Source of the DNA: Torpedo marmorata
Lineage: Eukaryota
Length of the DNA stretch: 64,000 nucleotides
Direction of reading: 5' to 3'
Assembly: GCA_977017645.1 (NCBI GenBank)
Contig: OZ360223.1
Coordinates: 180,172,001-180,236,000 of the forward strand
Positions 3,522-52,920 of the stretch are shown here, one piece after another. Made by a program: the position numbers and the translations under genes. Positions within the stretch are counted from its first letter, which is position 1. Every line of letters begins with the position of its first letter. The notes below the pieces were generated by a model that did no database searches, was not told where the DNA came from, and saw only the letters and a program-made list of their open reading frames with translations.

Positions 3522-4890
3522 TAAAAACACAAAAATGCTGGAGGAACTCAGCAGGCAGTACAGCGTCCATAGGAGGTAAAGATGTATAACCAACATTTTG
3601 GGCCTGAGCCCTTCGTCAAGGGTTAGGTTTAGGGTTAGGATTAGGTTGTCAATATGCGGACAGCAGGATAATTATCCCTCTTGTGTTCACTGGCCTCCCC
3701 TCTCAGAGGTTCTCTGTCACTATAAACTGCCACTTTTGGTTGGCCCATGCTTTCATTATCCTGTACCTGTTTCTAGCTTTTTTGGTGGGATCAGTGCCTT
3801 GCTTCTTCTCCGGTATTTATTGTACCTTTTGGTATGTCCTGGGTTGCGACCATCCTCTGTCTAGTGGGTGACCTTATATTTATCCCTTAGGATTAGGGTT
3901 TGGTGTGGGATTTGGGATGGAGTTAGGTGTGAGATTAGGGTTAGTTGGGGGGTTATGGTTTGGGTTAGGGTTGGGGTAGGGGGGTTGAGGTTGGGGTTAT
4001 TTGGGGAGTTCAGATTGGGGTTAGGGTTATTCTCATTTGGGCTCAGGCCCAAAATGAGAATAAAGCAGACAGGTGCCTGGAGAGGGAAGAATGGGCAGGG
4101 GGAGGAATACAGACCAACAGACAAAAGGTGTTAATGGGTATAGATGGGACACAGGAGAGAGGAAAGGTGAGAAGTGGCTGGGGGAGGGGGGGTTTTGTGG
4201 TTCTGTGGAAGCAGAGATCGGGGAAAGGAGACAGAGGGAAAATGGAAGAGGGAGAGAGAGATCTGGAGGAAAGGAAACATGGGGAAAGAAAGGGGGGAGG
4301 GTGGGGCTAACAGAAACCGGAGAAGTCGATGTTAATACCATCCAGTTGGAGGGTGCCCAGTCGAATATATGAGGTGTTCCTCCAATTTGCAGGTGGTCTC
4401 AGTCTGGCAGCGCATGACGCCATGGACAGACATGTCGGCAAAAGAATGGAGCAGGGAATTGAAATGGGTGGCCACTGGGAGATCCCTGCTATTGCAGCGG
4501 ACAGAGCCGAGGTGCTCAACGAAGTGATCTCCCAGTCGCCGTCCAGTCTCTCTGATGTAGAGGAGACCACAACGGGAGGACCGGATGCAGTAGATGACCC
4601 CTGCAGATTCATAAGTGAAGTGTTGCTTCACTTGGAAGGACTGTTTGGGGCCCCAAATTGAGGTGAGGGCTAAAGTGTGGCTGCAAGTGGAGAACCTCCT
4701 GCAGTCATATCCACAACTGTTTAATTCAGGCACCTGCCTGCTTTTCATTCATAACTTGAAAAAGGGCTCAGGCCTAAACATCAGTTATATATCTTTACCT
4801 CCTATGGACGCTGCGAGACCTGCTGAGTTCCTCCAGCATTTTTGTGTTTTTACTACAATCACAGCGTCTGCAGACTTTTGTGTTTGATAA
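3522..4890 (-). mobile_element. Penelope-like retroelement fragment (GIY-YIG) with inverted terminal structure
   Basis: ORF 4332..4748(-) has FTYESAGVIYCIRSSRCGLLYIRETGRRLGDHFVEH. ~100-bp inverted ends (3522-3620 vs ~4755-4855). TSD TGTAC(T/G)ATT(A/G)TGCAG at 3507-3521 and 4891-4905. Confidence 0.85.
3620..4030 (+). repeat. Degenerate (TTAGGG)n-like tracts (3620-3647, 3885-4030) flanking ~240 bp of unique sequence
   Basis: Runs such as GGTTAGGTTTAGGGTTAGGATTAGG, GATTAGGGTTAG and GGGTTAGGGTTGGGG are read directly. Confidence 0.7.
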
Positions 4891-11385: not shown

Positions 11386-12237
11386 ATAAAGAACCTTGAC
11401 ACTTGTCCATTGGTAAAACTACAGATCCTATCTTCAATATCAGTCTGCTCTTCTGAGCAAGTACTAAAAATGTGGCTGTAGTTGGTATGGTTCTTTACAT
11501 ATTGCAGAAAAGGATCCCACGTTGTCAGGGAAAACATTGATGTACAAAAGCAGGTCCAGGACCCTAGGTCACTTCTAGCTTCTCTACTATGAATTCTTCC
11601 TCCCAAATGCTCCGATGTCCATTTACCTGAGAGCCTGTGAGGCTACCTTTGAGGTACTTGGTGGTCTGCACTCACCTGAGGTGGTATTCTGCCTTTTAAA
11701 TAGCTCTCTGACAATACAGAGAAGACAGAGAGTTAAAATCAGCCCTGGACTCTCAGTCTGCACCCTTACAGCCCAGATCCTTAGTCAAGGTTATAATCAG
11801 CTCTGTGCAGAATGTGTCAGTTTTATTTGGGCTGCTAATTTATTATCATGAGGGAGGTTGCATGCTTGTAAGTGATTGAGCATGTGTGGGGCAGGGGTAC
11901 AGGAGCTGAGCTGGGATTCTTCCCAGAATTCTTTAGCAGTCAATGAATATATGGTGACCAAAAAATAAACATGGCACTGGGGCAGCAGAAGACCAGGAGC
12001 ACTCAAACCACTCCACAGTTGATTAATTGTGAGCAGTTCAACGTTCCTGTCTTCAGGCAGACCAGCTACTTAATGGGGCCTGAATCTCAGCTTTGGCTAG
12101 CAATAGTTCTCCTGGTTCAAGCACACATTGTGATCTCTTCATTAACCAGTGACATGCACTCCTCTGTTCTTTGGGATTGCTCATAAGGTCACCCTTCTCT
12201 TCCAAAGTCACAGTCACATCCTTTTGTTCCTTGGCAG

Positions 12238-12371
12238 GGAGCTGCTCAACAAGATGCCTTACATCACAATGTGCATAAAGGAGTCTCTGCGTCTTTACCC
12301 ACCAGTCCCAGGAATATCTAGGAGGCTGAACAAACCACTCACGTTCTTTGATGGGAGAACAGTACCGGAAG
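12238..12371 (+). pseudogene. CYP4B1: CYP4 K-helix exon (exon 9 equivalent), frame open
   Basis: ttggcag|(W)[44 protein letters not shown](G)|gt; 134 bp; phase matches the previous exon. Confidence 0.92.
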
Positions 12372-13627
12372 GTTTTATTTTAAATTACATTTCTAATATT
12401 AGAGATTTATTTTTAGGGTCTGGACTTCTGAATTTGTGCCATTCTGATCTTTTGATATAATTTGGCTTTTCTCTCATACGGTGTGCTGAATTTAATATCG
12501 TGAAGGGCATGGAGTGGGATCGTGCCGTGTGTCACCGTATCAATAGTTACTTATCTAGTCAAAATAAAAGCTCCACAATCTAATTAATGTTAATGCTCAA
12601 ACTATCTCTTTTTAAAAACTGTGAAAACATTGAGTTTAGCTGCACGTTCAAACGTGTCCAACTAGGTGAATAATTCCAGATTTCTAAAATGTTTACAGTC
12701 TTAGCATCACTGCCACTTCTTAATGTCTTAGCTTATCCCTCCTTTCATCTCCTGTGTTACCCATAATGTTAAAAGCTTTTAACCAGTTGAGGTATTGACT
12801 TCATTTGATGGAGCAGAACATTAAATGAAAGAATTGTCTGTGGGCTTAACAACATCACAGCTTTCACTTCAAAATTGACTATGACCTATTGAGGGTCAAA
12901 TTGCAGAACTTTCTATGTTAGGTTCTTGGAAAAAAAAATTATTTTTTTCTTACTCGCTTAGTGCCTACACACACACACTGAAAGAAGGGAATATACATAC
13001 ATTAGTGATAGATAATAATGTCATTCCATTCTTATGAAAGCAGTGATGGACTAAATCTATAACTAGAGTTGGATGATCCATTAAGGACTGCTGTATCTTC
13101 TTAGGAAATCAACAGATTATTGTTAATTGATGTCATCATGTACCTTTGTACCAATGTAGAAATTTCAAACTGTTCATCATTTTGACTGCTTAAACCACAA
13201 TTATTCACTTTGCTGAAGAAATTGAACAATTTGTATGTTCTCTCCTTGAGGTGTACAAGTATATGATATGATGGATTGTATTTGTTTTGTTATGGCCTTT
13301 TTCTTTTGCATTATGTGGTTAACCACAAAATAATTATTGTTTTCCATTCAGTAAGGTCTTGAGCTTTAGTTATTTACAATTTAGGTACACATTTGTAGAT
13401 TTTAATTTCATGCCAATATGGGACTGAGGCATTCTGAAGCTGATACACCACTGGATTCCAGCTTGTATTTGATCTTGAGACCAAATTGTCCAGGAAAAGG
13501 CCTTATAAGTATGGCAGCAAAGTAGTCATGGATCAGTACATCCAATGCTTTCAGCTGCGCTGCTACTCCATGCCCCCAGCTCAGTCTGTTCTCAAAGTTT
13601 CAAGAACTCTGTGATTCACAGTCATTC

Positions 13628-24411: not shown

Positions 24412-25825
24412 AAAAGCTTTGATATTAACGCGTCTGCGTATATTTTTTTTCATTTTGACTGATAGTGGGAAGGAGACATGAATCTATTGCGCATGTGCTT
24501 ATATTATATATCTCTATAGCAAACTTTTTTTTCTCACTTTGGTTAGATTCTTTTATAGAATTTTTTTCTTTGTTTGGGAAAATTTATTAATTATTCTTTT
24601 TTTTTAAATAAGGAGCTATATTAAGATTCTTCAGTAGAAGTGTGTAGGGTTAAAATGTATTTTTTTGAGCTGGTTACTGCTTGGTTTTGCAACCTTCAGA
24701 GCTGGGATGTTTGGGGGGGAGGGTTTTTGTTTGAGATTTTACTGGATTTGCAAGGTTATTTTGTTTTCATGGTTTATACATGCTGTGTTACAGTGTGGAT
24801 TCAAGGTGACGGCTCTTGGAATGGTGACAGACAGAGTTGGATTATTTTCATAATATTAATTAAGACACATGATTAACCCAATCAGACTTATCTCGTGGAA
24901 TGTTAAAGGTATGAACGGTCCAGTTAAACGCCGTAGGGTATTTGCTCATGTCAGACATTTAAAGGTTAATATTGTTTTTCTTCAATAAACCTATATCAGG
25001 AATTGTGATAAGGATAGGCTCATGTCTAAATGGAAAGGACAATGTTTTCATTCTTCTTCTGATGCTAAAGTCAGGAGAGTTTCTGTTTTAATTAACCAGA
25101 ACATTCCTTTTGTACTTCATAACACCTTATCAGACAAACATGGTCGTTATATTATTCTTACAGGTAAATTATATAATAAAATGGTTGTTTTTGCTAATAT
25201 ATACGCCGTAATTTTTTGAAAGATTTTTCTCAGCCCTACCTGACTTAAGTCAATACTCACTGGTATTGGGGGGGGATTTTAATTGTTGGCTAAATACTGT
25301 TTTAGATCGTTCTTCTTCTAAACCTGCTATTCTAAGTAAATCTGCAGCTGTAATTCATTATTTTTTAACAAATTTTGGTATTTCAGATGTTTGCCGTTTT
25401 TTATATCCTAATAGCAGAGAATTTTTTTTTCTAATGTGCATCGTACCTACTCTCGGATTGATTATTTTTTAATAGACAATCAATTGATTTCATTGACCAA
25501 ATCATGTGAATATCAAGAAATAGTGATATCTGATCATGCTCCTGTTATTTTGTCTTTGAATTTTCCTGACATTCCTTTTACAATGAGGCATTGGTGTTTT
25601 AATTCTACCTTACTCTCAGATAATGACTTTTTGAATTTTATGGAAGAGCAAATTCAGTTTTTCTTCATTACAAATTCTTCTCCATCAGTTTCTAACGTGA
25701 TTGCCTGGGATACTATGAAAGCATATTTTTGAGGGCAAATTATTTCTTATACAGCTAATATAAAGCAGAAGACCAACAAGGAAAGATTAGATATAATAAA
25801 TCAGATTAAACAAATTGATTTACAG

Positions 25826-26089
25826 TATAGTGACTTCAATCCAACAAATAGTCACTTGGAGGCTAGGTGAGATACTTGTTCTTGACGCTTTTCAATTAAT
25901 TTACTAACAAGTCCAATAGGTTCAAAACTTTATTTACACACGTTGACTTGTAGCAATCTTACTCCCGCGCATGCGCAGAGTACTAAATAAGCCCAGCACA
26001 TCCTACTAATCTCCGTGTCTCCTCCGAAACCTGCTGAGACCATCGGAACGCCGCGATTTAGGTAAGTAACCAAGCCTACGGCTCTTACA
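25826..26089 (-). repeat. BEL/Pao 3' LTR (264 bp, internally deleted)
   Basis: Matches both ends of 36361-36871 but lacks ~247 bp of its middle. Confidence 0.9.
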
Positions 26090-26977
26090 CCGGCCCCTAA
26101 TTATTATAATTAGACGCAATGTCTAAAATAATAATTACACAATCAATTACAAATAACAATAACCATATAACAGTCAAACAATATACAATTCTTCTTTCTT
26201 CACAAGACCATAGTTTACCATAACTCTGAATCAATAAAAGTCTGTAACCTGTGTAGTATACAACAATAAAATAAAGTCAGTTTGTATTTATCAAAGTTCT
26301 TTTATCTCCAGAATCATTGAGTTAGAATTTCGACCAGTAAACTTCAAGTCTTCCTCAGACAAAATAGATACAGTTTTTCTTTTGAATTTAACACGAGATA
26401 CTTCTTCAGCATGTCGTTCCACTTTATTCCTTTTTCAGCATTCTACTTCTCATGTGAAGAATTTAAACTCTTAGAACTAGAATTTGAATATTTATCTGAT
26501 CCTCTCGATTTTAATAAACGAGTCTCTTTAACCACTCTGGTTTCTATTGCCTTTTCCTGCAATTCCAAATCCAATTTTGCAACTTTCAATTCAGTCTCAG
26601 TTCTTTCCGAGAAATTAATAACTTTTTATTTTTTTATTTTTTTTAAATATTTTATTTTAAGATTTTCAATTTTTCACAATAATACAAAATAATGTAAAAT
26701 ATACATTAAACATCAGTTAAGTTCAATACATAGGAGTTTCGTATTACCATGAATCTAACCCCATCTAAACCCACCCTTACTAAAACAACCCACCCTCCAC
26801 CCTTCCCGTCCCTTACCCCCTCCCCACACTAGAACTAAAAAAGAAAAGAGAAGGGAAAAGCACAATTGAAAATATATCTATACACATCCATGGCTCGATG
26901 TAAGAGATTCAGCAATGTTCATTCTTCAAATTTAAACTTAGGAGAGTCAGCGGGGTCTGGGATGCAGGGCAACATAT

Positions 26978-29900
26978 TTAAATATTCATTCCTGATAATT
27001 GGATAAATGGACGCCAAATTTGTAAAAAGAGTCCATACTTATTCCTCATATTGTATGTTATTTTTTCCAATGGTATGCAACTCTGCATCTCTGAATTCCA
27101 TCTACTCATACTCAGATTTGTGTCCGATTTCCAGGTCACTGCTATACACTTCCTAGCTACTGCTAGTGCAATTTTCACGAATTTTAATTGCCATATGGAT
27201 AATTTCAATTTTGGTCTAGTTCCCTCTATATTCCCCAATAAGAACAAGTCAGGGTTTTGAGGAAATGCAACACCTGTAACTAGTTTCAACCGGTTTCCTA
27301 ACTCTGCCCAAAAATCTTTAACTTTTGAACATGACCACGTTGAGTGTAAGAATGTTCCTTCTTCTTCTCCACATCTAAAACATCTATTTGGTATTGCAGA
27401 GTTCATCTTGTTCAGTTTTTGTGGTGTGAAGTATATTTGGTGTAAGAAGTTATATTGTACAAGTCTGTATCTTACATTAACAGTATTAGTCATACTATCT
27501 AGGCATAGATCTGACCATCTTTTTTCATCAATTATAATATTAAGATCTTGTTCCCATCTTTGTCTGGACTTATGAAGTCCTCGTTTTTGAGCTCCCTTCT
27601 GTAACAAAGAATATACTATGGAAGTAAATTTCTTAATGTTTCCTTTCCTAATAATAGTTTCTACCTCGCTGCATTCTTGTAACAACATGTCTGGACCTAA
27701 TTTTCCTCTTAAGTAAGCTGTTAGTTGTAGATAGCAAAAAAATGTATTTCTAGGTATTCCATATTTATTCTGTAATTGTATGAATGACATCACTTGATTT
27801 CCTTCGTAACAATCTTCTATTTTCTTTATTCCTTTTAATGACCATGTATTTAAAAAAGGGTTATCTTTTGTAAATGGTATCAGATTGTTCTGTATCAGTG
27901 GCATTTTAGGTGATACATTTCCTTTTAATCCTATATCGTCATTAACCTTATTCCAAGCATTAATCAAATGTTTTAATAGCGGTGTTTCTTTAACACCTGT
28001 CAACAGTTTTGAGTTCCATTTATATATAAATTCTTGTGACTTCTTCTCTCCTATTTCTCCAAGCTCTATTCCAACCCACGCAGGTCTTTCTTCAGATTCA
28101 AAAAAAGAAGCAATAAAACGCATCTGTGCCGCTCTATAGTAGTTCTTAAAATTAGGGAGTTGTAAACCTCCCAGCTCATATTTCCATGTTAAACGTTCCA
28201 TCGAAACTCTTGACATTTTTCCTTTCCATAAAAACTTTCGCACCTGTTTATTTAAGTCTTGAAAAAATACCTGTGGTAGTGAAATAGGTATAGTCTGATA
28301 CAAGTACTGTATCCTTGGAAATATATTCATCTTAATACAATTAACTCTTCCTATCAATGTGATTGGCAGATTAATCCATTTCTCTAGATCCTCCTTAATC
28401 TTATTAAGCAATGGTATATAATTCCACTTGTATAAATTCTTTAATTTATTATCTGTCCGGACCCCTAGGTATTTTATTCCATTATGTGGCCATTTAAACT
28501 GGGTACTTCTCTTGCATACAGCGTAATCTCCTTCCGTAAGAGGCATAACTTCACTTTTATCCCAATTTATCTTATATCCAGAAACTTTTCCATATTCCTC
28601 CAACTTAAGATGTAGTTTTTGCAAAGAGGTCTCAGGTTCGGTCAAGTATATTAATACGTCATCCGCGAATAGACTTATTTTATGTCGCTCTTGACCAACT
28701 GTAAATCCTTTGATTTCCACATCACTTCTAATCACTTCTGCCAACGGTTCTATCGCTAGTACAAATAAAGCTGGTGACAATGGGCACCCTTGCCGACTAG
28801 ATCTTGTTAAGTAAAAGGGGGTTGATAATTGTCCATTTGTCACTACTTTGGCTTTTGGGGCATTATATAACGCTTTAATCCAATCTATGTACGTCTTCCC
28901 AAACCCGAATTTTTCCAAAACTTTAAATAAAAAGTCCCACTCTAACCTATCGAAAGCTTTTTCTGCATCCAGTGCCACTGCTACACTTCGTACTTTCCTT
29001 TTTTGAGCTAAATACATGATACTGAGTAGTCTTGCTACGTTATCTGCTGCTTGTCTTTTTTTTATGAAGCCTGTTTGGTCCATATTTACTAACTTTGGCA
29101 GAAAATTTGTTATCCTATTTGCCAGGATCTTTGCTACAATTTTATAATCTGTGTTCAGTAGTGAAATTGGTCTATAGGACGAGGGTTTCAATGGATCTCT
29201 ATCTTTTTTTGGTATTACTGTAATTATTGCAGTTGAGAAGGACTCTGGAAGTGTATGGGTCACTGACGCTTGTTGTAACATATCCATAAAAATGGGAGTC
29301 AATAATTCTTTGAATTCTTTATAAAACTCTGGTGGAAAACCATCTTCTCCCGGTGCTTTGTTACTTTGTAGTGCGCTAATTGCATCCTTTACTTCCCTTT
29401 GTGTAATCTGTGTGCTTAAATCTAGACGCTCTTGTACATTTAATGTTGGCAAGTTTATCTGAGATAAATAATTATCAATTTTTCTATCATCTTGTAATGA
29501 TTCTGATTTGTATAGATCAGAATAGAACTTCCTAAAAGAATCATTTATTGTTTGGGGTTTATAACTAATGACATCGGACTCTGTTTTAATTGCATTGATT
29601 GTTCTAGATGCCTGCTCTGTTTTTAATTGCCATGCTAATACTTTATGTGCACGTTCGCCTAGCTCATAGTATCTTTGTTTAGTTCTTATAATGGTTTTTT
29701 CCGTTCTATAAGTCTGTAACATATTATACTGTAACTTTTTATTAGTTAATTGCCTACTTTTATCTGTAGAACTCCTCTTTTGCAAGTCTTTTTCTAAAAT
29801 CGTTATCTCTTTTTCTAATTTATCTATTTCTTTCATATAGTCTTTTTTAATCTTTGAAGAGTAGCTTATAATTTGACCTCTTAAAAATACTTTTAAAGTT

Positions 29901-30758
29901 TCCCATATTACAAATTTATCAGTCACTGAATTTAGATTTGTTTCACAAAATATCTGAATTTGTCTCTTTATAAAATCACAAAAGTCTGTTCTTTTTAATA
30001 ACATAGGGTTTAGTCTCCATCTATATATCGATTTCTCTTTATCAGGTACCGTCACTGTCATCAGTAAAGGAGAATGATCAGACAGGATTCTAGCCTTATA
30101 ATCTATTTCCAAAATTCTATCTTGTATTTGAGCTGAGGTTAAAAATAAATCGATTCTAGAATAAGTATCATGTCTAGTAGAATAAAATGAGAAATCTTTA
30201 TCTCTCGGGTGGATTCTCCTCCACGCGTCAATCAAATTTAGATCCTTCATTAACACCAACGTGGCTTTTGCTGCTTTAGTTCTCCTTCCTCCTCTTGTAG
30301 ATTTGTCCAGCCCCGGATCTAAACAAAAGTTGAAGTCTCCCCCAATTATGATATTTTCATGCGCTTCCGCTATATTGAGAAAGGTCTCTTGAATAAATTT
30401 ATCATCGTCTATATTAGGAGCATATATATTCAAAAGTGTCCAAAATTCAGAGAATATCTGGCAGTTAATCATTACATATCTTCCTGCGGGGTCCGATACA
30501 ACACTTTGTATCTTAATTGGAAGATTCTTTTTTATTAAAATTGCCACACCCCTTGCCTTGCTGTTAAATGAAGATGCCCTTACATATCCCACCCAGTCTC
30601 TTTTTAATTTCAAATGTTCCTTCTCTGTTAAATGTGTCTCTTGTAAAAAAAGCTACATCCACACCCAGTTTTTTAATATACGCTAGAACTCTTTTCCTTT
30701 TAATTGGTCCATTTATCCCATTAATGTTAAAATTCAGGAATCTCAATATGTTACTCAT
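26978..30758 (-). CDS. L1 ORF2p (APE endonuclease + reverse transcriptase + Cys-rich domain); single +1 frameshift at 30645-30651
   Basis: MSNILRFLNFNINGIN...VAF/LQETHL, GGDFN, SRID, SDHSP, LDAEKAFDR, RQGCPLSP, FADD, CFRC..H..W.C; 1211 aa uninterrupted after the T7 run. Confidence 0.95.
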
Positions 30759-31203
30759 TTTTAATTATGTTTCGTTCCTATTGATGTCACCCCCTTCATC
30801 CCAGACCCCCCTCTCACCCTCCATAATTACTTTCTTCAATCTCCATCGAGCCAACATATAGTCCTTACAGTGATATATGCAGTTACTATAATAAAAATAT
30901 ACAGTTACTAAGTACATTCCCTTCTCCCTGTAAAAAAGAAAACATGCTCTAACTATAACCCCACTAGCGCTGCTAATATATACAGCGCTACCCCCCTCTA
31001 TTTTACGGGCCGCGGCCTTAGCCGCGGAAGTACACATGATTATAGCAGAAGTCAGGAACTCACCCTCCTCTCCCCGACCCCCCTGATATCACACTTTTAA
31101 CATAAACCATTCTTTATCATTAAGATTTCCAAGCTATAGGTTGTAAACTGATGTATTTTTTTTTACCAATATATACTAGAAAAAAGAAAAACACATTCAT
31201 CTT

Positions 31204-32313
31204 TCAACGTTCCTCTCTAATCGGTGGCAGCTCATTGGCAAATTCCTCTGCTAAAACATAGTTTGTAAAGAATTTGTTTTGCTGGTCCGGTATAAAGATC
31301 TTCAAGGTCGCTGGGTGTCGCAGCACAAATTTATACCCCTTCTCCCACAAAGTCTTTTTAGCTGTATTGAATTCTTTCCTCCTTTTCATCAAGTCGGCGC
31401 TTATGTCTGGGTAAAAAAGAACTTTGGCTGCTTTATATATCAAGGGACCTCCTCTCTGTCTTGCTGCCTCCATTGCGGTCTGTAAAATTCGCTCCCTGTC
31501 TTGGTATCTTAAAAACTTGACTAATATAGAACGTGGGTATTGATCTTGTGCTGGCCTTGCTCTTAAAGCCCTGTGGGCTCTTTCGATCTCAATTTCACGC
31601 TCAAACTTATCCGCGCCTAGCACGTCCGGTAGCCAAGTCTTCATGAAAGCGATCATGTCTTGTCCTTCCTCACCTTCTTTAAGACCAACGATCTTTATGT
31701 TATTTCTTCTACTAAAATTTTCCATTATGTCCATTTGCTGTTTGAGTTTTTTATTTTCCATCTCTAAAACAGTGTAATTATTTTCCAATGCCTCCACTCT
31801 TCCTTCAGTATTTTCCACTTCTGTTTTTATTTTCTTAACTTTATATTCAATCTTCTTTACTTTTAACTTCAAGTCTTTCATATCATCAATTACCTTTTTC
31901 ACATAGTTCATATCTTCCTTTAATTCCCTAACTGTTGTTAGTATAGCTGCAGTTGTTGACAGTTCCCCTTTAAATAGTTGCTGTGACGTCTCCGGCGGTT
32001 GTTGTTGTAGCGCTTCGGCCTCCAGCTGATCGTCCTCGTCTTCCGAATCGGAGCCACTCGTGCCTTCCTGGTCTGAGGTCGTTGTTGCCGGCTTTTCGCG
32101 CACGCGCGTAACAGGCCCGATTTCCCTGCCGGCGCCATGTTCTTGGCGTCGGGAGGGATCAATGCCTGTCGCCGTACCCATCAACGGAGCCTCCTCCTGG
32201 GGCTCTGTTCGCACTTCAGCTCCCTGCTGCCGAGGCCTCTTCTCTGTCGAGGTCTTCTCTTTCCGTTGGAGCCCAGGTAAGTCCTTTGTTGTTTTTTCTT
32301 TTTTCGGAGGCAT
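31204..32313 (-). CDS. L1 ORF1p (coiled coil + RRM + CTD), 369 aa, intact
   Basis: ENFSRRNNIKIVGLKEG, IERAHR, PRSILVKF, FYPDIS...RRKEF, PATLKI motifs. Confidence 0.95.
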   Translation of the reverse strand: MPPKKEKTTKDLPGLQRKEKTSTEKRPRQQGAEVRTEPQEEAPLMGTATGIDPSRRQEHGAGREIGPVTRVREKPATTTSDQEGTSGSDSEDEDDQLEAEALQQQPPETSQQLFKGELSTTAAILTTVRELKEDMNYVKKVIDDMKDLKLKVKKIEYKVKKIKTEVENTEGRVEALENNYTVLEMENKKLKQQMDIMENFSRRNNIKIVGLKEGEEGQDMIAFMKTWLPDVLGADKFEREIEIERAHRALRARPAQDQYPRSILVKFLRYQDRERILQTAMEAARQRGGPLIYKAAKVLFYPDISADLMKRRKEFNTAKKTLWEKGYKFVLRHPATLKIFIPDQQNKFFTNYVLAEEFANELPPIREER

Positions 32314-32526
32314 TTTTTTCTTTTCTTTTTAAAAGGTTAAAGCCCTTTTAAAGTGGTTTTTAGCTTACAAAAAGCGTTTTTTTTTTCACTTTTTTTAAAG
32401 TTCTCAGAGAGGTCGGGTTTCCACGACCTGACCCTACTCCATCACGTGACGTCCCCCCGAGAAATTAATAACTTGATCTGAAATGAAAATATCATGTGAT
32501 TCATTGGTACTTCTATTGTCAATCCT

Positions 32527-32835
32527 GCTGTGGTAAACTTGTAATTTTTTAATTTCTTCATCTTGCTTGTTACATTTCTGCAATGCAATATCACTTTATT
32601 TCTGCATTGTTAGTAGCTGAACCTTCAATTTACATTTTTGATTGTTTTCTATAATCAACTGTTTTGTGTTATTAACCAATAACTTGTTCTCTTTCAAAAT
32701 ATTAATCTCTTCCTCCAACCTTTTACATTTTGATAATGCTGAATCTCTTTCCTCAATAACTGTATTTATTTCTTCAGCAGTTATTCTTTTCTTCCGCTTT
32801 CTGACATTGCAAATTTTATTTACAATTAAATCTTT
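32527..32835 (-). pseudogene. MIPOL1: Intron-less MIPOL1-like coiled-coil segment inside the BEL element
   Basis: LIVNKICNVRKRKKRITAEEINTVIEERDSALSKCKRLEEE...ENNQKCKLKVQLLTMQK*SDIALQKCNKQDEEIKKLQVYHS aligns by eye with the recalled vertebrate MIPOL1 sequence. Confidence 0.75.
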
Positions 32836-33196
32836 CTGTTTACTGTTTTCATGATTATCCAATATTTCCAATTCCCCTTTCAACATTTTGTTCTCTGAAT
32901 TCAATTGCATTAAATTATCATTCACATTCTTCTTTATTCCATCAGCACAATTTTTTGTGTTCTCCAGTTTTACATCACATTGCGACATTTCTTCATTGAC
33001 TTTGTCTGCTGCAACCTCTGAACTACAAAATCTTCTTTCAAATTTGTTCTCAGTCACTTGCTTTATTCCTGCCTCTGATTCAATTACACAGGAATAATCA
33101 CTAGTATTATTTGCAACATCTTTTAATACTTCATTTTCATCCATTTCTGATGAAAATAATTCCTTCAATGTTGTTTTAATTACCTTTGATTTATTT

Positions 33197-35714
33197 TCAC
33201 ATTGATCTGTTTTCTTCAAAAGTGACTTTCTTATTCACAAACTTTTGCTCTTCCCTTAACTCATCAACTTTCACAACTGAAATCCTGTTAACATTTATCA
33301 CTAACTCTTCCTGTGCAATATCATTATTTCTTTCCAATGGTCCATTGATTGTCCAACCAAGCTTGGTTCCAACAGCGTAAGGTCCATTCCCTCCACTCCG
33401 TATTACTTCCAGTGGTTCCAAGACCTTTGGCACATCTGAACCAATCAGCATTTCTATCTCAGAGTTAACTTCAGGTAGATAAACTTTCCACAGATAAAGA
33501 CAAATGGTGGAAATCATTTTGATGTGGAATGTTTCCTTCGTGCACCAGCATAGTCTTCTGAGTATATAAACTTGGAAGATCACAAAATTTTTGTCATCCA
33601 ATCCAGCAACCTCTAAGCCTGAAACAATGCTGGTTTCAACGACCTTTTCTTGTCCTATGGTTTTCAACATAATTCTTGACCTTCCTTGAATATTAAGTTT
33701 GTTCATTAGTCCTTCCATGCAAAAAGATGCAGTGCTGCCTGGGTCAAGAAATGCATATGTATGTACTGTTGCATCCCTTTTCTTGGTCTTGACTTGTACA
33801 GGCACTATTGAAAGATTGCAGTTATCCACACTTGCCCCAGTAAGACCATTTGTCTGAACCGAGGTTATAACATTGTTTTCTGTTGTTTCATTTGTTTCTG
33901 TTTGCTCCTTTTCAAATTCCTTCTTTCTTTGATAGATATGCAACATTCTAGGATGGTTCAAATTGCATATGTTACAGTTAATTCGCTTCTCGCAGTTTTT
34001 ACTGATGTGCCCTTTACACAGACAGCTAAAACATACTCCATTTTCCTTTAAGAAAGCGATCTTCTCATTATGTTCCTTCTTTTCCAAATGTAAACACATT
34101 TCCAAAGCATGTCCACCTTTACAGAACAAACAACTCTTCTCATTAGTCAAACTTTCCTTTTCCTTATTTACTTTATCTTTTTCTTTATTTATAACTGACA
34201 CATTAGTAGCAAAAGTACTTCTTTTCAATTTTGGACTAGGCTGTGAGTTAAACCTCCGTACATCTTTGTTCCCCATTGAATTGTCTTTGGTATTTCCATA
34301 TATTGGATCTGTTTCAATGTAGACCTGTTGTTCGACTGTAATTTTCTTGTAAATCACAAGCCAAATTTCTCCATCTATCCCACAACTTGTAAGGTAATTT
34401 TTCTAAGATGATTTGCATATTACCAGGCACTTCAAGCTCACGAATATTATCGATATCTTCCATGGCATTACAACATCCTCTTAAAAATAGAGTATATGCT
34501 TGTAGAGCTTTTACATCATTCTGTTTTATTGATGTCCATTTAAGAGCTTTATCCATGTAAGCTAAAGCAATTCGATGCTTGTTGTAAAAAAGTTGTTCTA
34601 GTAAAGCCTTAGCTCTGTCTAATCCTCTTTCTGAGGACAAATGTTGACAAATCTTTACAAGTTTTCTTGGATGTCCTTTTGTGAACATTTCCTAATAATA
34701 AAGACATTCATCAGGGTCTTGGCATTTATTTTCAATATTGCGTTTGAAAGATCTCATGAACGCTTGGTACTGAAGTGGATCACTATCAAAAGTTTGTATC
34801 TCTTTCTTGGGTAAAGAAGAGAGAGACTGTAACTGAATCAATGATGCAGCAATTTCATTTTGTCTTCCCATGGATGACAATACATTGCTCTGTTCACCAC
34901 CTCTTGTTACAGGTAATGTATCTGGAAACCTCACTTGTGTAGTTTCTCCCATATTTCTGATGCTTGACTCAAATGCCAAGGGAGCTGCATCGTTTGACCG
35001 AACCCAAGCCGCAGCTTTATCTTCAGATGTTACCACTGGTACATGTGACTCGATAACACTATGCTCTTGAAGGATTTGTCCTTGTATTTTCAAGTCTTGT
35101 ACCCTTGGTACTAAAATATCTACCCTTTCGGTTGGTTTCTTTTCCTGTGATTCTTTTTTAAAATATGACTTTTTATCATCGCACACTTTAGATAATTTAA
35201 TCCGAGCACCAGATACCATTGAGCCTTCTAGTACCTCTTTGTTTGCTTCCAGCTCCTGCTGCTCCTTTCTCTGCCTTAGCTGCTCCTTCTCTTGCCTTAG
35301 CTGCTCCTTGTTCTGCCTTAGCTACTGCCTTAGCTGCTCCTTTCGCTGCTCCTCCTTTTGCCTTAGCTGCTCCTCCTGTCATTCTAAAATATGTTTATCC
35401 TTAAGCGTTTTTTGTTGCGCAAGAGTGGCCAAGTCAACTTCAACCTTTGCATGTGACGATGCAGAACTTGAAGTACGAGAAACTCTGAAGCTCGAATCAG
35501 AACTTTGTTTGCTTCTCCTGCTTTCAGCATTTGAGACACTGTCACATGATTGTATTTCATCCTGCAGGTCAGATGTTGTCTTCTTACTTACCTCTTTCTC
35601 CAATCCGAATTGTACATCCTTTGCATCTTCATCCTCTTCGTTTTCTTCATCATTTGGTGACACAATTGCAGCCATTTCCACCCTGCTGTCTTCTTGTTCA
35701 TCAAACGAAGCCAC
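33197..35714 (-). pseudogene. BEL/Pao gag-protease, decayed (several stops and frameshifts)
   Basis: SLPKKEIQTFDSDPLQYQAFMRSF, KLPYKLWDRWR, CLFCKGGHALEMC, CFSCLCKGHISKNC, CNICNLNHPRMLH, LSIVPVQVK..TYAFLDPGSTASF, GPYAVGTKLGWTING. Confidence 0.9.
35250..35378 (-). repeat. ~21-bp coding minisatellite in BEL gag (EQLRQxK heptads)
   Basis: Repeated GAGCAGCTAAGGCA units on the minus strand. Confidence 0.8.
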
Positions 35715-35900
35715 CTCTTCTTCCTTTGCCAGCTTCAGTCTTGCGATGAGAACCTTTTTATTTCAACTTATATCTAGTTTCAGTCGCTTCAATTCTTCTT
35801 TAATATCCACAACCTTCATGTCTTCAATATGTTGGTCCTCAACAGAAACATCAGCGGTTTCTGCGTCAGCTACTGCTGCATCAGCGGGTGCTGCGGCCAT
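35715..35900 (-). pseudogene. SLTM/SAFB-like N-terminal SAP domain fused in frame to BEL gag
   Basis: MAAAPADAAVADAETADVSVEDQHIEDMKVVDIKEELKRLKLDIS*NKKVLIARLKLAKEEE fits the SAP consensus; the stop sits at the conserved Gly. Confidence 0.75.
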
Positions 35901-36360
35901 TTTACTCGTCTTGTTCCACTGTCCTTCGAGAATACACGACATTAGCCAAATCAACAGTCCCCAATGGACGAGCAGCAGCAAATCCAATCTGTGTTCAAAC
36001 TTGCCAAAAATACACAGAAGGAGTCCACAGACTTATGCCTACCACTTCAGATGACTGTAATGTGCTGCTATTCACAATCGAGTTTCCACCACAACATCCG
36101 TCAATAATATCGCTGATTTTCAAGATATGGTTTCTCCAACTTATTTATAGGACACTTTACTATAAGATTTGAAGCTCTAAATCCCTCTCTGGCTGTTATT
36201 CATGGCAGGTAGATGTGGATTACAAACTGCCCCTAACTCGAGGCATCTCCAAGATGGCTGCCATTTTATTTTTAAATATCAGTCCAAAGCACAGAGAGAG
36301 TATTCTATCTTCTTTCCTTCAATTTTCTGTTCCAAACAATAAGCTTTTATTGACTAAACA

Positions 36361-36871
36361 TACAGTGACTTCAATCCAACAAATAGCCACTTGGAGGCTA
36401 GGTGAGATACTTGTTCTTGACGCATTTCAATTAATTTACTAACAAGTCCAATAGGTTCAAAACTTTATTTACACACGATGACTTGTAGCAATCTTCAATG
36501 ACTTAAATATCTTCTTTAACGAAATATAAACAATTCTTGATAACGATGCTTAATAACGATTCTTCAAAACGTCTTTAAACTTCCTTTAAAACGATTCACC
36601 CTCTTCTAAGTCGCCATATTCTTATACTACTTCTTCTCCGATTCGCGCATGCTCCCACGCGCATACTCCACCGCGCCTACTGCACACACTTCCCCACTGC
36701 GCATGATCCAGCCACTTGCCCACTGTGCATGCGCCCGTCGGCACTCCCACGCATGCGCAGAGTACTAAATAGGCCAAGCACGGCCTACTAATCTCCGTGT
36801 CTCCTCCGAAACCCGCTGAGACCATAGGAACGCCGCGATTAAGGTAAGTAACCAAGCCTACACCTCTTACA
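36361..36871 (-). repeat. BEL/Pao 5' LTR (511 bp)
   Basis: Paired with 25826-26089; GC-rich segment with repeated GCGCATGC motifs. Confidence 0.9.
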
Positions 36872-39229
36872 TACAGTATACACAAGTTAAAAACCCTGAT
36901 TTATATAAAAGGAGAGTTGAACTTAAAACTAAATTTGATCTTCTTTCTACTTATCCCATTGTAGAGCAACTTTTGAGGAGCAAGAGTCAGTTCTACATCC
37001 ATAGTGAAAAATCCGGTAAGCTTTTGGCCAGTCAATTGAAAAGTATGGCTGCTAAGAGACAAATTAATAAGATTCGGATGGAAGATGGTACGGATACTAC
37101 TGACCATTCTAAAATAAGTGATACCTTCAGAGAATTTTATTCCAGATTGTGCACTTCTGAATCTAATAATGAAAATACTTCAATGATGGACTTTTTGGAC
37201 CGCCTTAATTTGCCTATGCTTTCTTAGAATAAACGTATGAGTCTGGAGGCTCCTATTTCTCAAGAGGAAATACTTTTTTACAATCTGGTAAATCTCCAGG
37301 ACCTGATGGGTACCCTGTGTAATTTTATAAATCCTTTTCTAAATTGCTTGTGCCCCAATTGAGTTCTGTGCTTAATGACTCATTTAAACAAGGGAATCTT
37401 CCATCATCTTTTAATGAAGCTTGTATTTCTCTTATTCTGAAAAAGGGGATCCATTTGAATGTGCTTCTTATAGGCCTATCTCTTTACTCAATGTAGATAT
37501 GAAGATTTTGTCTAAAATATTGGCCCATAGATTGGAGAATATTTTACCATCAATCATTTCTGAAGATCAAACTGTTTTTATTAAAACTGTTATTCTTATT
37601 TTAATATACACCGTTTATTGAATATTTTATATTTACCTCCCACTCCTGTCCCTGAATGTGTTCTTTCTCTCGATGCAGAGACGGCTTTCGATCGGGTGGA
37701 ATGGGGGTATCTATTTGCGACTTTGGAAAAATGTAATTTTGGACCACGTTTTATTAAATGGATTAAATTATTATATTTATGTCCTACTGCGTCAATTCTT
37801 ACTAATTTACAGCAATCAAAACCTTTTAATCTTCAACAGGGTACTCGTCAAGGCTGTCCTTTAATCCATTACTTTTTGACTTGGTATTAGAACCTCTAGC
37901 AATTGCTCTTCGTGAATGTAGAGATTTTATAGGGATCCATAGGAACAGCATTGAACACAAGGTTTCCTTATATGCAGATGATCTTTTGCTTTTTGTATCT
38001 AATCCAGATGTTTCTTTACAAAGCATATTAGCTTTGCTAACTCATATTAGTCTGTTTCTGGGTATAAGTTGAATCTGCATAAAAGTGAACTTTTACCTTT
38101 AAATGGTTCTATACCAAGATATTCTATTTTTCGTTTTAAGATTGTGAAGGATCAATTTACCTATCTCGGTATTACAATTACTTTTTAAGGAAAGTTTTTC
38201 TAATTTATTTAATCAGGTTAAATTATTGTTATCGAGATGGTCACCTTTATCTATTTCCATGATTGGTCGTATCAATTCTATTAAAATGAACATTTTACCT
38301 AAATTTTTGTATCTTTTCCAATCTATACCAATTTTCATTCCCAAATCTTTTTTTGATTCACTTATTTCGCTTATATCTTCCTACATATGGAAAGGAAAAC
38401 ACCCTCGCTTAAATAAAGCTCATCTTGAAAAAGCTAAAAGGAATGGTGGATTGGCTTTTCCTAATTTTAGATTTTATTATTGGGCGGTCAATATATGTAA
38501 TTTGATTCTTTTGCTATATTTTGATAATCTAGTTGACCGCTCTTCATGGGTAGAAATAGAACTGAATTTTACTAAGAATACTTCCATGTTGGCAATTCTT
38601 GGGTCCTTTTTATCTTCTTCTTTATATAAACTAACTGATAATCTGATAACTAAACATAGTTTGAGAATATGGGCAAAAGTTAGAAGGTTTTTTGGATTTC
38701 AGAGTTTTTCTCTTGCTAGCCCTATTATATCTAATCACCTTTTCCAACCTTCTTTGCAAGATACCGCCTTAAATGTTTCAGACCTTTTTATTCGTATAAT
38801 TTTGCTTCTTTTGAACAATTGGTGGTAAAATTTAACTTACCAAACACTCATTTTTTTAGATATTTACAAGTTAGACATTTTGTTCAATCTCAGATCCCTC
38901 ACTTTCCGCGAATCCCCGAAGCAAACATCCTTGATACACTTTTTGATTTACAACTTTCTCATAAAGGCTTAATATCTCTTATTTATAATAATTTGCTTGA
39001 TTTAAGAATAGCCTCGTTAGTTAAAATCAAGAATGATGAGGTTTGGGACTCCATTTGTAATTTGATTAATACTACCTCCCTTTGTGCATGACACTGTTTG
39101 TTGCAATTTAAAGTGGTCCATAGAGTACATATGTCTAAAGTTAAATTGTCTCGTTTTTATTCAGATATAAATCCTCTATGTGACAAATGTAAAATTGGTG
39201 AGGCTTCTTTGGTTCACATGTTCTGGACT

Positions 39230-40566
39230 TCAGAATCAGAATTTATTGTCATGAACAAGTCATGAAATTCGGTGTTTTGCGGCAGCATCATAGTGCAAAC
39301 ATTCATATTATTACCATCTTACGACATTACTATAAAAAAAATAATAATAATAGTGCATGAAAAGTAAGGCAGTGTCTTTGGTTCATTGATTATTCAGGAA
39401 TCTGATGGCAGCGGGGTAGAAGCTGTCCTTGTGCCATTGAGTGCTTGACTTTAGGCACCTGTACATTTTTCCCGTTGGAAGCAGAGTGAAGAGGGCATGG
39501 CCTGGGTGGTGAGTGTCTTTGAGGACAGAGGCTGCTTTTTTAAGACACTGTCTCATGTAGATGTCCTCGATGGAGTGAAGTCTGATGCCTGTGATGTCAC
39601 AGGCCGAGTTAACAACACTCTGGAATTTATTCTTGTCCTGAGAGTTGGCTCCTCCATACCAGGCAGTGATGCAACCAGCCAGAATGCTCTCCACGGTACA
39701 CCTGTAGAAGCTTACGAGAGTCTTCGGTGACATACCGAATCTCCTCAGACACCTCACAAAGTATAGCCGCTGGCGAGCCTTCTTTGTGATTGCTTCAACG
39801 TGGAGGCTCCAGGACAGATCCTCGGAGATGTTGACACCCAGAAATTTGAAGTTTTTGACCCTCTCCACTACTGAGCACTCTATGAGGACTGGGTCGTGTT
39901 CCCCTAACTTCCTCCTGAAGACCACAATCATCTCCTTGGTTTTGCTGACGTTGAGCGCATGGTTGTTATCGTTACACCATTCAACGAGCTGATCTATCTC
40001 CATCCTGTACGCTTCCTCATTGCCGTTTGTGATTCTGCCGACAACTGTGGTGTCATCGGCAAACTTGTAGATGGCATTGGAATTGTGCCTGGCCACACAG
40101 TCATGGGTGTATAACGAGTAGAGCAGTGGGATAAGCACGCATCCTTGGCGTGCGCCTTTGTTGATAATCAGTGAGGAAGAGACGTTGTTTCCAATTCGTA
40201 CTGACTGTGGTCTTCCGATGAGAAAGTCAAGGATCCATTTCCAGAGGGGGGTACAGAGGCCTAGAGTTTGTAGCTTCTTGACCAGCACTGAGGGAATAAT
40301 CGTATTGAAGGCCGAGCTGTAGTCGATGAAGAGCAGCCGTATGTATGAATTGCTGTTTTCGAGGTGGTCCAGAGCTGAGTGGAGAGCCAGCGATATTGGA
40401 TCTGCTGTGGAGCAATTGTGACGATAGGCGAATTGCAGTAGGTCCAGATCTTTGCTAAGGAACGTGTTAATTCTGGCCATGACCAGCCTCTCAAAGCTTT
40501 TCATAACAGTAGAAGTTAGTGCTACTGGGCGGTAGTTGTTGAGGCAGCTCACAGTACTCTTCTTGG
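39230..40566 (-). mobile_element. Rex1/Babar LINE, 5'-truncated, RT frame open
   Basis: ORF 39383..40585 has [33 protein letters not shown]; (TTCTGA)n tail abuts the broken end of the host L1. Confidence 0.92.
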
Positions 40567-41533
40567 AAAGATGTTTTTCAAACATTATCTGATTGTCAAT
40601 TTTGTATTATTCAGAGAAAATTCATTTCCATGAAGGCCCAGTTTAGTTTGAATGGAAAGGTTCCAGTTCAGTAATGTAGTTAAATATTTTTTGCTAACTT
40701 GGATTGACATTTGATATTGTAAATTACAGTATATAACTGAGTTTTCAAGGGGAAGTAGAATGGCCAGTAGATTTTGCAGTAAGATTCATTGTTTAAAGTT
40801 GTAGAGCCTCCTAAAATTGTATAACCACTATTTCCACTACTACAGAATTGAGATCTGGACATTATTTTGTCACTCCCATTGTGTATTTATTTTTCTGGTC
40901 TTTGGCCTTTTTAAAAATCTTGGATTGCTGTTAAATATCCACTCAACATACGAGTGTGGTTGGAGAGAGTCAGTGGTGTACCTATAAAATACCCTTTGGC
41001 ATTTTAAAAAAGTTTTGCTTATTTTAAATCTGAACAATTTGCTGTATTTTCCAAGAAACTAAAATTGCTTTTAACAGTTCCACATTTAAAGAGGTACCAG
41101 ATAGATGTAACTTTAGGAACTGTACAAGTAAGTAATTGAACCAGGAATTTTAGAGGTGGTTTATGTGATGTGCTTACAATGCTTATGGCAGATGCTATTC
41201 TACTCTTTGGCTTCAGAATAAAGCTTGCAGTCATCCATCATTGGTTTCTTCCAGTCACTTCCTCCTGGCACCCCATTCCATCCCCAACCCTGTTCCTGCG
41301 TTTTTTTATGCTGGTGAGATGTAACTCCAAGAGTGCAAGAGAAAACACTTCTCCAATAACATACTCACGATTTATGTAACTTCATTATTTTGAACAGGTC
41401 AGTTTACACAAGTGCCTTCCCTCTCACTTCAGTTAATGGTTTGAAAGAGTAAAACACAGGAACAAGGGAAGAATGAGAAGTGTTAGATACCTTGGCTAAC
41501 TGTTTTATATTGAAGTTATGTATGATCCAGTAA

Positions 41534-45190: not shown

Positions 45191-45486
45191 CTACATTCAT
45201 CCTGTGCATCTCTGAGTTAAATAACCCAACGTCACATGGTATTATGTGGTATTAATGTTCCAATTGCAGAAAATGTAACACATGAAATAACTATCAATAG
45301 GAGGAACAGTAAAAATGCAGCAGCTTGAAAACTGTGACGTAAAACCTGTGCCTAAAATCATTTTATTACATTATCCAAAATCAAAGTGTTTTATAAAATG
45401 AATGTAAGAGGTACTTAAAAATGTGTACTTTTTACCAATGCTTAATTTTTATATGTAATTATAACTATTGTTTTTAATTGCTTTAA

Positions 45487-46625
45487 AGGATCACCTCGAA
45501 AATAGCAATTCATACATACGGCTGCTCTTCATCGACTACAGCTCGGCCTTCAATACCATTATTCCCCCAGTGCTGGTCAAGAAGCTACAAACTCTAGGCC
45601 TCTGTACCCCCCTCTGCAACTGGATCCTTGACTTTCTCATCGGAAGACCACAGTCAGTACGAATTGGAAACAACGTCTCCTCCTCACTGATTATCAACAC
45701 AGGCGCACCCCAAGGATGCGTGCTTAGCCCACTGCTCTACTCGTTATACACCCATGACTGTGTGGCCAGGCACAATTCCAATGCTATCTACAAGTTTGCC
45801 GATGACACCACAGTTGTTGGCAGAATCACAAACGGCAATGAGGAAGCGTACAGGAGGGTGATAGATCAGCTCGTTGAATGGTGTAACGACAACAACCTTG
45901 CGCTCAACGTTAGCAAAACCAAGGAGATGATTGTGGACTTCAGGAGGAAGTCAGGGGAACATGACCCAGTCCTCATAGAGGGCTCAGTAGTGGAGAGGGT
46001 CAAGAACTTCAAATTCCTGGGTGTCAACAGCTCCGAGGATCTGTCCTGGAACCTCCATGTTGATGCAATCACGAAGGCTCGCCAGCGGCTATACTTTGTG
46101 AGGTGTCTGAGGAGATTCGGTATGTCATCAAAGACTCTCGAAAACTTCTACAGGTGTATCGTGGAGAGCATTCTGGCTGGTTGCATCACTGCCTGGTATG
46201 GAGGCGCCAACTCTCAGGACAAAAATAAACTCCAGAGTGTTGTTAACTCGGCCTGCGACATCACAGGCACCAGACTTCACTCCATCGAGGACATCTACAT
46301 GAGGCGGTGTCTTAGAAAAGCAGCCTCTATCCTCAAAGACCCCCACCACCCAGGCCATGCCCTCTTTACTTTGCTACCATCGGGAAAAAGGTACAGGAGC
46401 CTAAAAACGAACACTCAACGGCACAAGGACAGCTTCTTCCCCGCTGCCATCAGATTCCTGAATAATCAATGAACCAAAGACACTGCCTTACTTTTCGTGC
46501 ACTATTATTTATATTTTTTTATAGTAATGTTGTAAGATGGTTATAATATGAATGTTTGCACTATGATGCTGCTGCAAAACACCGAATTTCATGACTTGTT
46601 CATGACAATAAATTTGAATTCTGAT
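45487..46625 (+). mobile_element. Rex1/Babar LINE, 5'-truncated, RT frame open
   Basis: ORF 45468..46472 has [17 protein letters not shown] and YKFADD; near-identical to copies at 39230 and 51520. Confidence 0.92.
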
Positions 46626-51519: not shown

Positions 51520-52920
51520 GTCAGAATCAGAATCAGAATTTATTGTCATGTACAAGTCATGGAATTCGGTGTTTTGCGGCAGCATCATAGTGCAAACATT
51601 CATATCAACCATCTAACGACATTACTATAAAAATTATAAACAATAGTGCACGAAAAGTAAGGCAGTGTCTTTGGTTCATTGATTATTCAGGAATCTGATG
51701 GCAGCGGGGAAGAAGCTGTCCTTGTGCTGTTGAGTGCTCATCTTTACGCTCCTGTACCTTTTTCCCGATGGAAGCAGAGTGAAGAGGGCATGGCCTGGGT
51801 GGTGGGGGTCTTTGAGGATAGAGGCTGCTTTTTTAAGACACCGCCTCATGTAGATGTCCTCGATGGAGTGAAGTTTGGTGCCTGTGATGTCACAGGCCGA
51901 GTTAACAACCCTCTGGCGTTTACTCTTGTCCTGGGAGTTGGCGCCTTCATACCAGGCAGTGATGCAACCAGCCAGAATGCTCTCCATGGTACACCTGTAG
52001 AAGTTTACGAGAGTCTTTGGTGACATACCGAATCTCCTCAGACACCTCACAAAGTATAGCCGCTGGCGAGCCTTCTTTGTGATTGCATCAACGTGGATGC
52101 TCCAGGACAGAACCTCGGAGATGTTGACACCCAGGAATTTGAAGTTCTTGACCCTCTCCATGACTGAGCCCTCGATGAGGACTGGGTCGTGTTCCCCTGA
52201 CTTCCTCCTGAAGTCCACAATCATCTCCTTGGTTTTGCTGACGTTGAGCTCAAGGTTGTTGCCATTACACCATTCAACGAGCTGATCTATCTCCCTCCTG
52301 TACGCTTCCTCATTGCCGTTTGTGATTCTGCCAACAACTGTGGTGTCAACGGCAAACTTGTATATGGCATTGGAATTGTGCCTGGCCACACAGTCATGGG
52401 TGTATAACGAGTAGAGCAGTGGACTAAGCACGCATCCTTGGGGTGCGCCTGTGTTGATAATCAGTGAGGAGGAGACGTTGTTTCCAATTCGTACTGACTG
52501 TGGTCTTCCGATGAGAAAGTCAAGGATCCAGTTGCAGAGTGGGGTACAGAGGCCTAGAGTTTGTAGCTTCTTGACCAGCACTGAGGGAATAATGGTATTG
52601 AAGGCCGAGATGTAGTCGATGAAGAGCAGCCGTATGTATGAATTGCTGCTTTCGAGGTGATCCAGAGCTGAGTGGAGAGCCAGCTATATTGCATCTGCTG
52701 TAGAGCGATTGTGGTGATAGGCGAATTGCAGTGGGTCCAGATCTTTGCTTAGGTATGTTTTAATTCTGGCCATGACCAGCCTCTCAAAGCATTTCATCAC
52801 AGTAGAAGTTAGTGCTACTGGGCGGTAGTCGTTGAGGCAGCCCACACTACTCTTCTTGGGTACCGGGATGATTGATGCCCTTTTGAAGCAGGTGGGAACC
52901 TCTGACTGCCGCAATGAGAG
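51520..52920 (-). mobile_element. Rex1/Babar LINE, 5'-truncated, inserted in CR1
   Basis: ORFs 52684..52914 and 51676..52581; (TTCTGA)3 tail. Confidence 0.92.

Follow-up and report, generated by a model that had tools for sequence, protein, structure and literature searches.

A non-autonomous BEL/Pao retrotransposon of the electric ray with spliced BRCA1, MIPOL1 and Elongin A sequence in place of pol, its MIPOL1 piece probably copied from a back-spliced circular RNA

Pseudogenes derived from circular RNA have been described previously, among them 33 mouse circRFWD2 copies, and an exact non-colinear donor-acceptor junction serves as the criterion for recognizing such sequences (PMC4897178). 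In the available portion of that report, the involvement of LTR sequence amounts to flanking enrichment, and the mechanism is left open. LTR-mediated retrocopies, which include the BEL element BATUMI with its two-gene chimera and the four-gene 'Super' retrocopy of the mouse, have short shared sequence at their switch points (PMC5131818); the loci treated in the accessible sections of that paper are young or few, and the word 'circular' is absent from its main text. The maize element Bs1 is a plant element reported to be transcribed, translated and possibly functional, and permuted exons go unmentioned in the part of the review covering it that was available (PMC13317346). In cartilaginous fishes, MIPOL1 is the first-listed of the most-retrocopied genes in a recent preprint, whose accessible text treats retrocopies as independent, shaped by expression and selective filtering, and tracking non-LTR elements (bioRxiv 10.64898/2026.06.26.734816).

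Here we examined an element located in the window, by which we mean the whole stretch of 64,000 nucleotides of Torpedo marmorata DNA that was analysed. Our reading, to which we assign a probability of about 0.72, is that this element is a non-autonomous BEL/Pao LTR retrotransposon in which pol was swapped for spliced BRCA1, MIPOL1 and Elongin A sequence, placed in frame behind gag-protease, and that its MIPOL1 piece was likely copied from a back-spliced circular RNA. The MIPOL1 piece resembles the circRFWD2 pseudogenes, as far as these are described in the available text (PMC4897178), in having an exact non-colinear junction, exons of the circle only, no poly(A) and LTR sequence around it. Unlike those copies, it lies inside a complete LTR element with a target duplication, in frame with gag-protease and beside pieces of two other genes, and the cargo is at least 100 times more numerous. 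As in LTR-mediated retrocopies, partial spliced RNAs from several genes have taken the place of internal ORFs, with further rounds of retroposition; however, a fixed open frame over thousands of copies is found in the ray element, whereas none is described for such retrocopies in the portion of PMC5131818 at hand. The ray element also shares with Bs1 an LTR element with three host-gene segments in one chimeric ORF (PMC13317346, in part), but differs from it in the absence of protein-level constraint and in a very high copy number. When the literature was searched (subscription papers and repeat databases excepted), no report of the element, or of back-spliced cargo fused to gag-protease, was found. 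Multi-gene LTR capture and circRNA pseudogenes are thus each known, and it is their combination and scale that were not found in print.

One copy of the element is present in the window, running from 36871 to 25826 on the minus strand and interrupted by a later L1; its features are collected in Table 1. The element was itself inserted within an older L1 fragment. The L1 that splits its cargo is a young insertion, with an ORF1 of 374 aa and an open ORF2 stretch of 1224 aa, the start of the latter falling out of frame near 30650.

Table 1. Features of the element copy in the window (window coordinates)
Feature	Position	Strand	Remarks
Target duplication TACAG, 5-bp	36872-36876 and 25821-25825		flanks element
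5' LTR	36361..36871	-	511 bp, TG start, TA end
BEL/Pao gag (SAP domain, DUF1759-type capsid, zinc knuckles) and protease	33245..35945	-	stops and frameshifts in window copy
Protease motif FLDPGS	near 33740	-	
Captured BRCA1 piece	32821..33249	-	two spliced host exons in window; four in host-like copies
Captured MIPOL1 exons E (part), F and G	32528..32833	-	segment of the preliminary description
Back-splice-type junction	32527..32528	-	exon G complete to its 3' end, followed directly by the 5' end of exon A, which lies upstream in the host gene
MIPOL1 exon A, first 69 nt	32459..32527	-	54/69 identical
Full-length L1, later insertion	26625..32456	-	~18-nt target duplication; splits cargo
MIPOL1 exon B piece	26521..26602	-	71/82 identical
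Captured Elongin A pieces	26313..26533	-	129/154 and 50/61 identical to two host exons
Tract before 3' LTR (PPT position)	26090..26115	-	identical to autonomous BEL copies
3' LTR	25826..26089	-	264 bp, 247-bp internal deletion; 250/264 identical to 5' LTR

The backbone was identified by tblastn with the natural BEL ORF of an autonomous element, in which PF05380, RT and integrase domains are present; gag/protease is 68-78% identical to this ORF at the amino acid level. A Pfam search of the window's own broken gag and cargo ORFs gave no match; in a profile search of sister copies the SAP domain was found, and DUF1759 (E 1e-4) and DUF1758 (E 0.003) matched weakly, both below the cut-off. RT, RNaseH and integrase were absent from all 10 of the element pieces tested, in which at most a 49 aa linker was left, so the element is a non-autonomous derivative of BEL/Pao. 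The sequence 3' of the 5' LTR (window 36325-36360, minus strand) is common to the autonomous copies L222-L233 and mostly lacks a TGG start; judged from this, the priming site of the BEL family looks unusual. No tRNA genes were found in the window. Elsewhere in the window, a cytochrome P450 exon (PF00067, E 5e-11) was detected at 12146-12460 on the plus strand, and the window may lie inside a CYP gene, with the LTR element antisense to it. Three copies of one RT-bearing LINE family, 95% identical, were seen at 39383-40606, 45465-46472 and 51676-52683.

A preliminary description of this DNA, made from the sequence alone, had pointed to an intron-less MIPOL1-like segment without giving its strand. 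The peptide in question lies on the minus strand (32835 to 32527), and its identity as MIPOL1 was borne out: the 103 residues are 71% identical to electric-ray MIPOL1 (E 1e-45) and 47-65% identical to six other vertebrate MIPOL1s. When the 212-aa open stretch around it was used in the protein search, it matched MIPOL1 alone (3 hits among 271 candidates, mouse E 2.9e-10). Moreover, the segment is indeed intron-less, as host exons E (part), F and G are present without the 29-kb and 78-kb introns, with 93/104, 89/105 and 78/92 nt identical to the host, respectively, and the match spans the host exon junctions with exact joins. Coiled coils are known for spurious matches, and one could suppose that the element merely encodes a generic coiled coil here, or else that host exons were inserted at the DNA level. 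The host-like copies, 91-99% identical in DNA to six host MIPOL1 exons and devoid of introns, leave the odds of this at practically nil; a generic coiled coil and a single-exon DNA capture were both rejected.

Other parts of the preliminary description were revised. The segment had been placed where pol should start, which was wrong, since protease and MIPOL1 are separated by about 430 nt of BRCA1. The match of about 100 aa is real, but the residues YHS are not its end; it continues into the upstream exons A (32527-32459) and B (26602-26521, past the L1). That it reads through a stop codon was confirmed, the stop at 32596 being almost private (2 of 30 loci). The proposed drift towards an A-rich composition holds in part: A rose from 41 to 45%, while C dropped from 16.5 to 9.5%. 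Among 122 fixed changes, C>T (42), G>A (24) and C>A (22) predominate. Neither the two further captured genes nor the family of thousands of copies had been spotted.

Host MIPOL1 is a single-copy gene on G000:C40 (the C-D-E piece gave one match among four candidates genome-wide), and a genome search with the whole of MIPOL1 was dominated by copies of the element. Its exons A (136 nt), B (106), C (130), D (34), E (171), F (108) and G (95), followed by H and I, have AG..GT borders and lie at one locus, with the upstream exon ending 50 kb before exon A. The order A-B-C-(191 nt)-E-F-G was confirmed for the host in RNA-type contigs, whose loose ends are the upstream exon and H. Five type II copies of the element (types are defined below) lie in the introns of this gene (G000:C40, 64.28-64.50 Mb), four of the five in the gene's sense, with splice-less exon copies within them.

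The piece that precedes MIPOL1 was identified as BRCA1 by 3 hits in 1.84 billion proteins, all three representatives being named BRCA1. It consists of four spliced colinear exons of a gene on G000:C61, 86-100% identical in six copies; in the window, 95/108 and 257/311 nt of the two exons are identical to this gene. An atlas assignment of this piece to MIPOL1 clusters (0.93) was wrong, and N-terminal MIPOL1 was ruled out as its source because the upstream host exons gave no match. The Elongin A piece comprises up to five spliced colinear exons of a gene on C41, 90-98% identical in five copies, and in host-like copies includes the start of the PF06881 region. When a host-like copy was used as the query, electric-ray MIPOL1 and Elongin A ranked first. 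No RING, BRCT or TFIIS part was found in the captured pieces. Another gene resembling Elongin A, though more distantly (69% over 42 aa), was noticed on G000:C25 near 175.31 Mb, minus strand (L126, L127).

The order of the MIPOL1 exons was then read in 12 host-like copies, picked from the best MIPOL1 matches. In 12 of 12, exon E from nt ~48 is followed by F, by G to its last base, and by A from its first base; where present, B and about 20 nt of C follow A, with 91-100% identity to the host. The window has the identical G-to-A join (32528|32527). This join of the G donor to the A acceptor is base-exact, although A lies 206 kb upstream of G in the single host gene, and 36 of the 39 type I copies and 30 of the 40 type II copies show it without loss of a nucleotide. 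Exons A-G add up to 780 nt, a multiple of 3, the introns on either side measuring 50 and 62 kb. Owing to this sum and to the same phase of both ends, the reading frame continues over the join. Exons H and I, which lie outside the circle, matched none of the 12 copies, and the upstream exon gave no match in the one copy tested. An A-tail is lacking, and the MIPOL1 cargo passes straight into Elongin A. The capture of MIPOL1 from mRNA, as earlier proposed, is thus upheld with respect to spliced RNA, given the exact exon-exon joins, but the permuted order is unlike the product of a linear mRNA. From the sequence, the G-to-A join is likely the back-splice signature of a 780-nt circular RNA.

At the level of the DNA junction alone, back-splicing cannot be told from the trans-splicing of two pre-mRNAs or from a tandem A-G duplication present at capture and since lost. 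Either would supply a linear RNA with repeated exons and yield the same exact donor-to-acceptor junction, and the copies contain a single pass over it: no copy with the remainder of the circle or a second turn was found, the C-D-E piece matching the host gene alone. We nevertheless regard this origin as unlikely. Each MIPOL1 exon is present once in the 480 kb host locus, and C-D-E has one locus genome-wide; a duplication would have had to span more than 200 kb and then be lost completely. Moreover, exonic Mipol1 circRNAs are listed in the mouse (PMC9888537, PMC8176118), the parts consulted giving no exon content. In the ray, the G-to-A circle was not seen in assembled RNA-type contigs, which show the linear order and from which assembly drops rare forms. 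Repeats shared between the flanking introns were no more commonly inverted (47) than direct (56).

It could also be argued that the reverse transcriptase switched twice on an ordinary MIPOL1 mRNA and joined the end of G to the start of A by chance. At least four other template switches occurred in the same element, and 3 nt (AG|C) are shared at the G-to-A junction. However, in-frame backward joins falling on two exon borders are rare (3 of 6,832 classes when 3 or more nt are shared, 4 of 22,688 when 2 or more are), and all other capture points fall within exons, which renders such a coincidence very improbable.

The capture points are consistent, in part, with template switching as outlined in the available sections of PMC5131818. 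About 9 nt are shared at the BEL-BRCA1 point (judged against one RT-less BEL copy) and 2 nt (AG) at the BRCA1-MIPOL1 point; about 8 extra nt of unexplained source lie between MIPOL1 and Elongin A, and about 9 nt, judged from diverged relatives, are shared between Elongin A and the BEL tail. Loci with the BEL linker continue into BRCA1 in 29 of 30 cases and into RT-less BEL pol in one. A BEL copy in which the same linker is joined to post-RT pol without cargo (L183 / L221, G000:C52 near 45,913,378, minus strand) is, on its structure, a candidate RT-less precursor of the chimera. We propose that BRCA1, MIPOL1 and Elongin A RNAs would have been packaged together with the element, and that reverse transcription may have switched from BEL to BRCA1 mRNA, to the MIPOL1 circle over its back-splice junction, to Elongin A mRNA and back to BEL, in one or several rounds. 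The chimera would then have been mobilised by RT and integrase from autonomous BEL copies. Later, a shortened and diverged form may have recombined onto a backbone near that of the family active today and multiplied into the thousands.

The abundance of the family was assessed in several ways. The junction motif of type II, to which the window belongs, was found at 3,941 exact places and the host-identical 24-nt junction at 164, with 0 for the controls of both. As the type II motif was exact in 17 of 41 copies examined and in 2 of 6 unselected copies, about 10,000-12,000 copies are implied. A protein search returned 39,417 candidates, of which 150 were scored and found to be 88-100% identical, and six copies in 800 kb of host-gene regions extrapolate to about 47,000 (17,000-102,000). 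The family therefore has at least 3,941 copies and probably 10,000-50,000. In the same genome, autonomous BEL elements gave 6,618 candidates, with several ORFs of more than 2,000 aa, the intact ones being of ~2,050 aa. In a second organism (A), whose host exon is different, contigs from runs tentatively taken to be RNA cross the BRCA1-MIPOL1, G-A and MIPOL1-Elongin joins, so the chimera is common to the ray and a relative. In the sequencing-run search for the element, none of the runs listed as containing it was recorded as RNA.

When 83 distinct copies were compared, 42 were of type I (exon G 91-99% host-like) and 41 of type II (80-89%). A tree of 31 rows, comprising 14 named MIPOL1s, the host and, out of the 83, 8 copies of each type, grouped all cargo copies with the two electric-ray sequences (support 100/98), in agreement with an origin from MIPOL1 of the ray. 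In type II copies the larger part of Elongin A has been deleted, as have portions of BRCA1 and of exons A and B of MIPOL1. In the protease region, median identity was 90% between type II and a young autonomous copy, 81% between type II and type I, and 79% between type I and autonomous; four discordant copies are exceptions, and the type II copies nearest to the autonomous copy number five. LTR pairs are about 87-95% identical in both types. These comparisons suggest that the cargo moved to a new backbone before the large burst. In L176, L108, L028 and L062, backbone and cargo type conflict or the copies are nested; these are possible recombination intermediates or cases of misclassification.

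The reading frame of the chimera has been preserved while its amino acids drift neutrally. In four natural copies the frame is open for 744-959 aa, running from gag across the cargo. The joins that copies share preserve the frame in nearly all of them (41/42, 33/35, 37/37, 30/30 and 35/35), the last type II join, at an A-run, being in frame in just 20/35, and the indels common in the cargo have lengths divisible by 3. Among the 122 changes fixed on the type II line over 331 polarised codons there are 0 stops, against an expectation of 6.2 from the private ratio (p 0.002) to 8.6 from the line's own spectrum (p 2e-4). Protein-level selection, on the other hand, was rejected: nonsynonymous and synonymous changes in the cargo number 89/33 among fixed and 376/143 among private differences (Fisher p 1.0, omega about 0.93; copies chosen by similarity), and the fixed ratio exceeds that of type I gag-protease (100/70, p 0.013). 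As a control, gag/protease showed constraint on the type I lineage only (p 0.005); autonomous (26/15) and type II (8/1) lineages were not significant, which makes the control weak, so that mild constraint on the cargo could escape detection. Taken by itself, Elongin A tends towards constraint (12/8, p 0.09).

A cargo kept for its protein, with the coiled coil and basic tail cleaved from or riding on Gag and aiding assembly or nuclear import, or decoying partners of MIPOL1, BRCA1 or Elongin, would account for the in-frame joins and the lack of a fixed stop. In the same direction, the cargo outlasted the change of backbone, the MIPOL1 coiled coil E-F-G is its least trimmed part, and the start of the Elongin A domain is retained in host-like copies. 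Such a role is nonetheless doubtful, given the neutral ratios above, the extensive deletions in the successful type II form, and the lack of RING or BRCT domains. From its pattern of change, the cargo looks like open-frame filler and not a working protein. A stop after the protease would leave a 3' UTR longer by 1-2 kb and prone to decay, and decay of stop-bearing RNA would be the likeliest cause of the kept frame. Whether the selected trait is translation to near the 3' LTR as such, through protection from long-3'UTR/nonsense-mediated decay or through cis use of Gag, and not any function of BRCA1, MIPOL1 or Elongin, we consider an even bet.

Unlike the independent retrocopies of the preprint, the ray locus represents one capture amplified as LTR cargo. 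If the copies counted there are the same, as we presume, amplified cargo likely explains the top rank of MIPOL1 in the cartilaginous-fish list. Among the other genes at the top of these lists, in the accessible text, are SUDS3, SDF2L1, SLU7 and ZNF276 in cartilaginous fishes and PIWIL2 and DND1 in amphibians (bioRxiv 10.64898/2026.06.26.734816); these too may be single captures amplified as transposon cargo. Lists of most-retrocopied genes outside mammals can thus reflect a single amplified capture. With fragments of BRCA1, MIPOL1 and Elongin A present in their thousands, read mapping and annotation could be disturbed, and the fragments could be a source of small RNAs against these host genes. 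The locus ties circRNA retroposition to a concrete product of LTR template switching, at a scale far beyond the tens of copies known, and offers a clean case of selection on frame with none on protein. Taken together, these data tip the balance slightly towards a view in which a host circRNA was built, in frame over its back-splice junction, into an LTR polyprotein gene together with BRCA1 and Elongin A, was moved to a new backbone, and came to be among the commonest coding sequences of the electric ray. Under selection for frame and not for protein, retrotransposons would then use host exons and circles as open-frame filler, and their fossil cargo would record ancient germ-line circRNAs.
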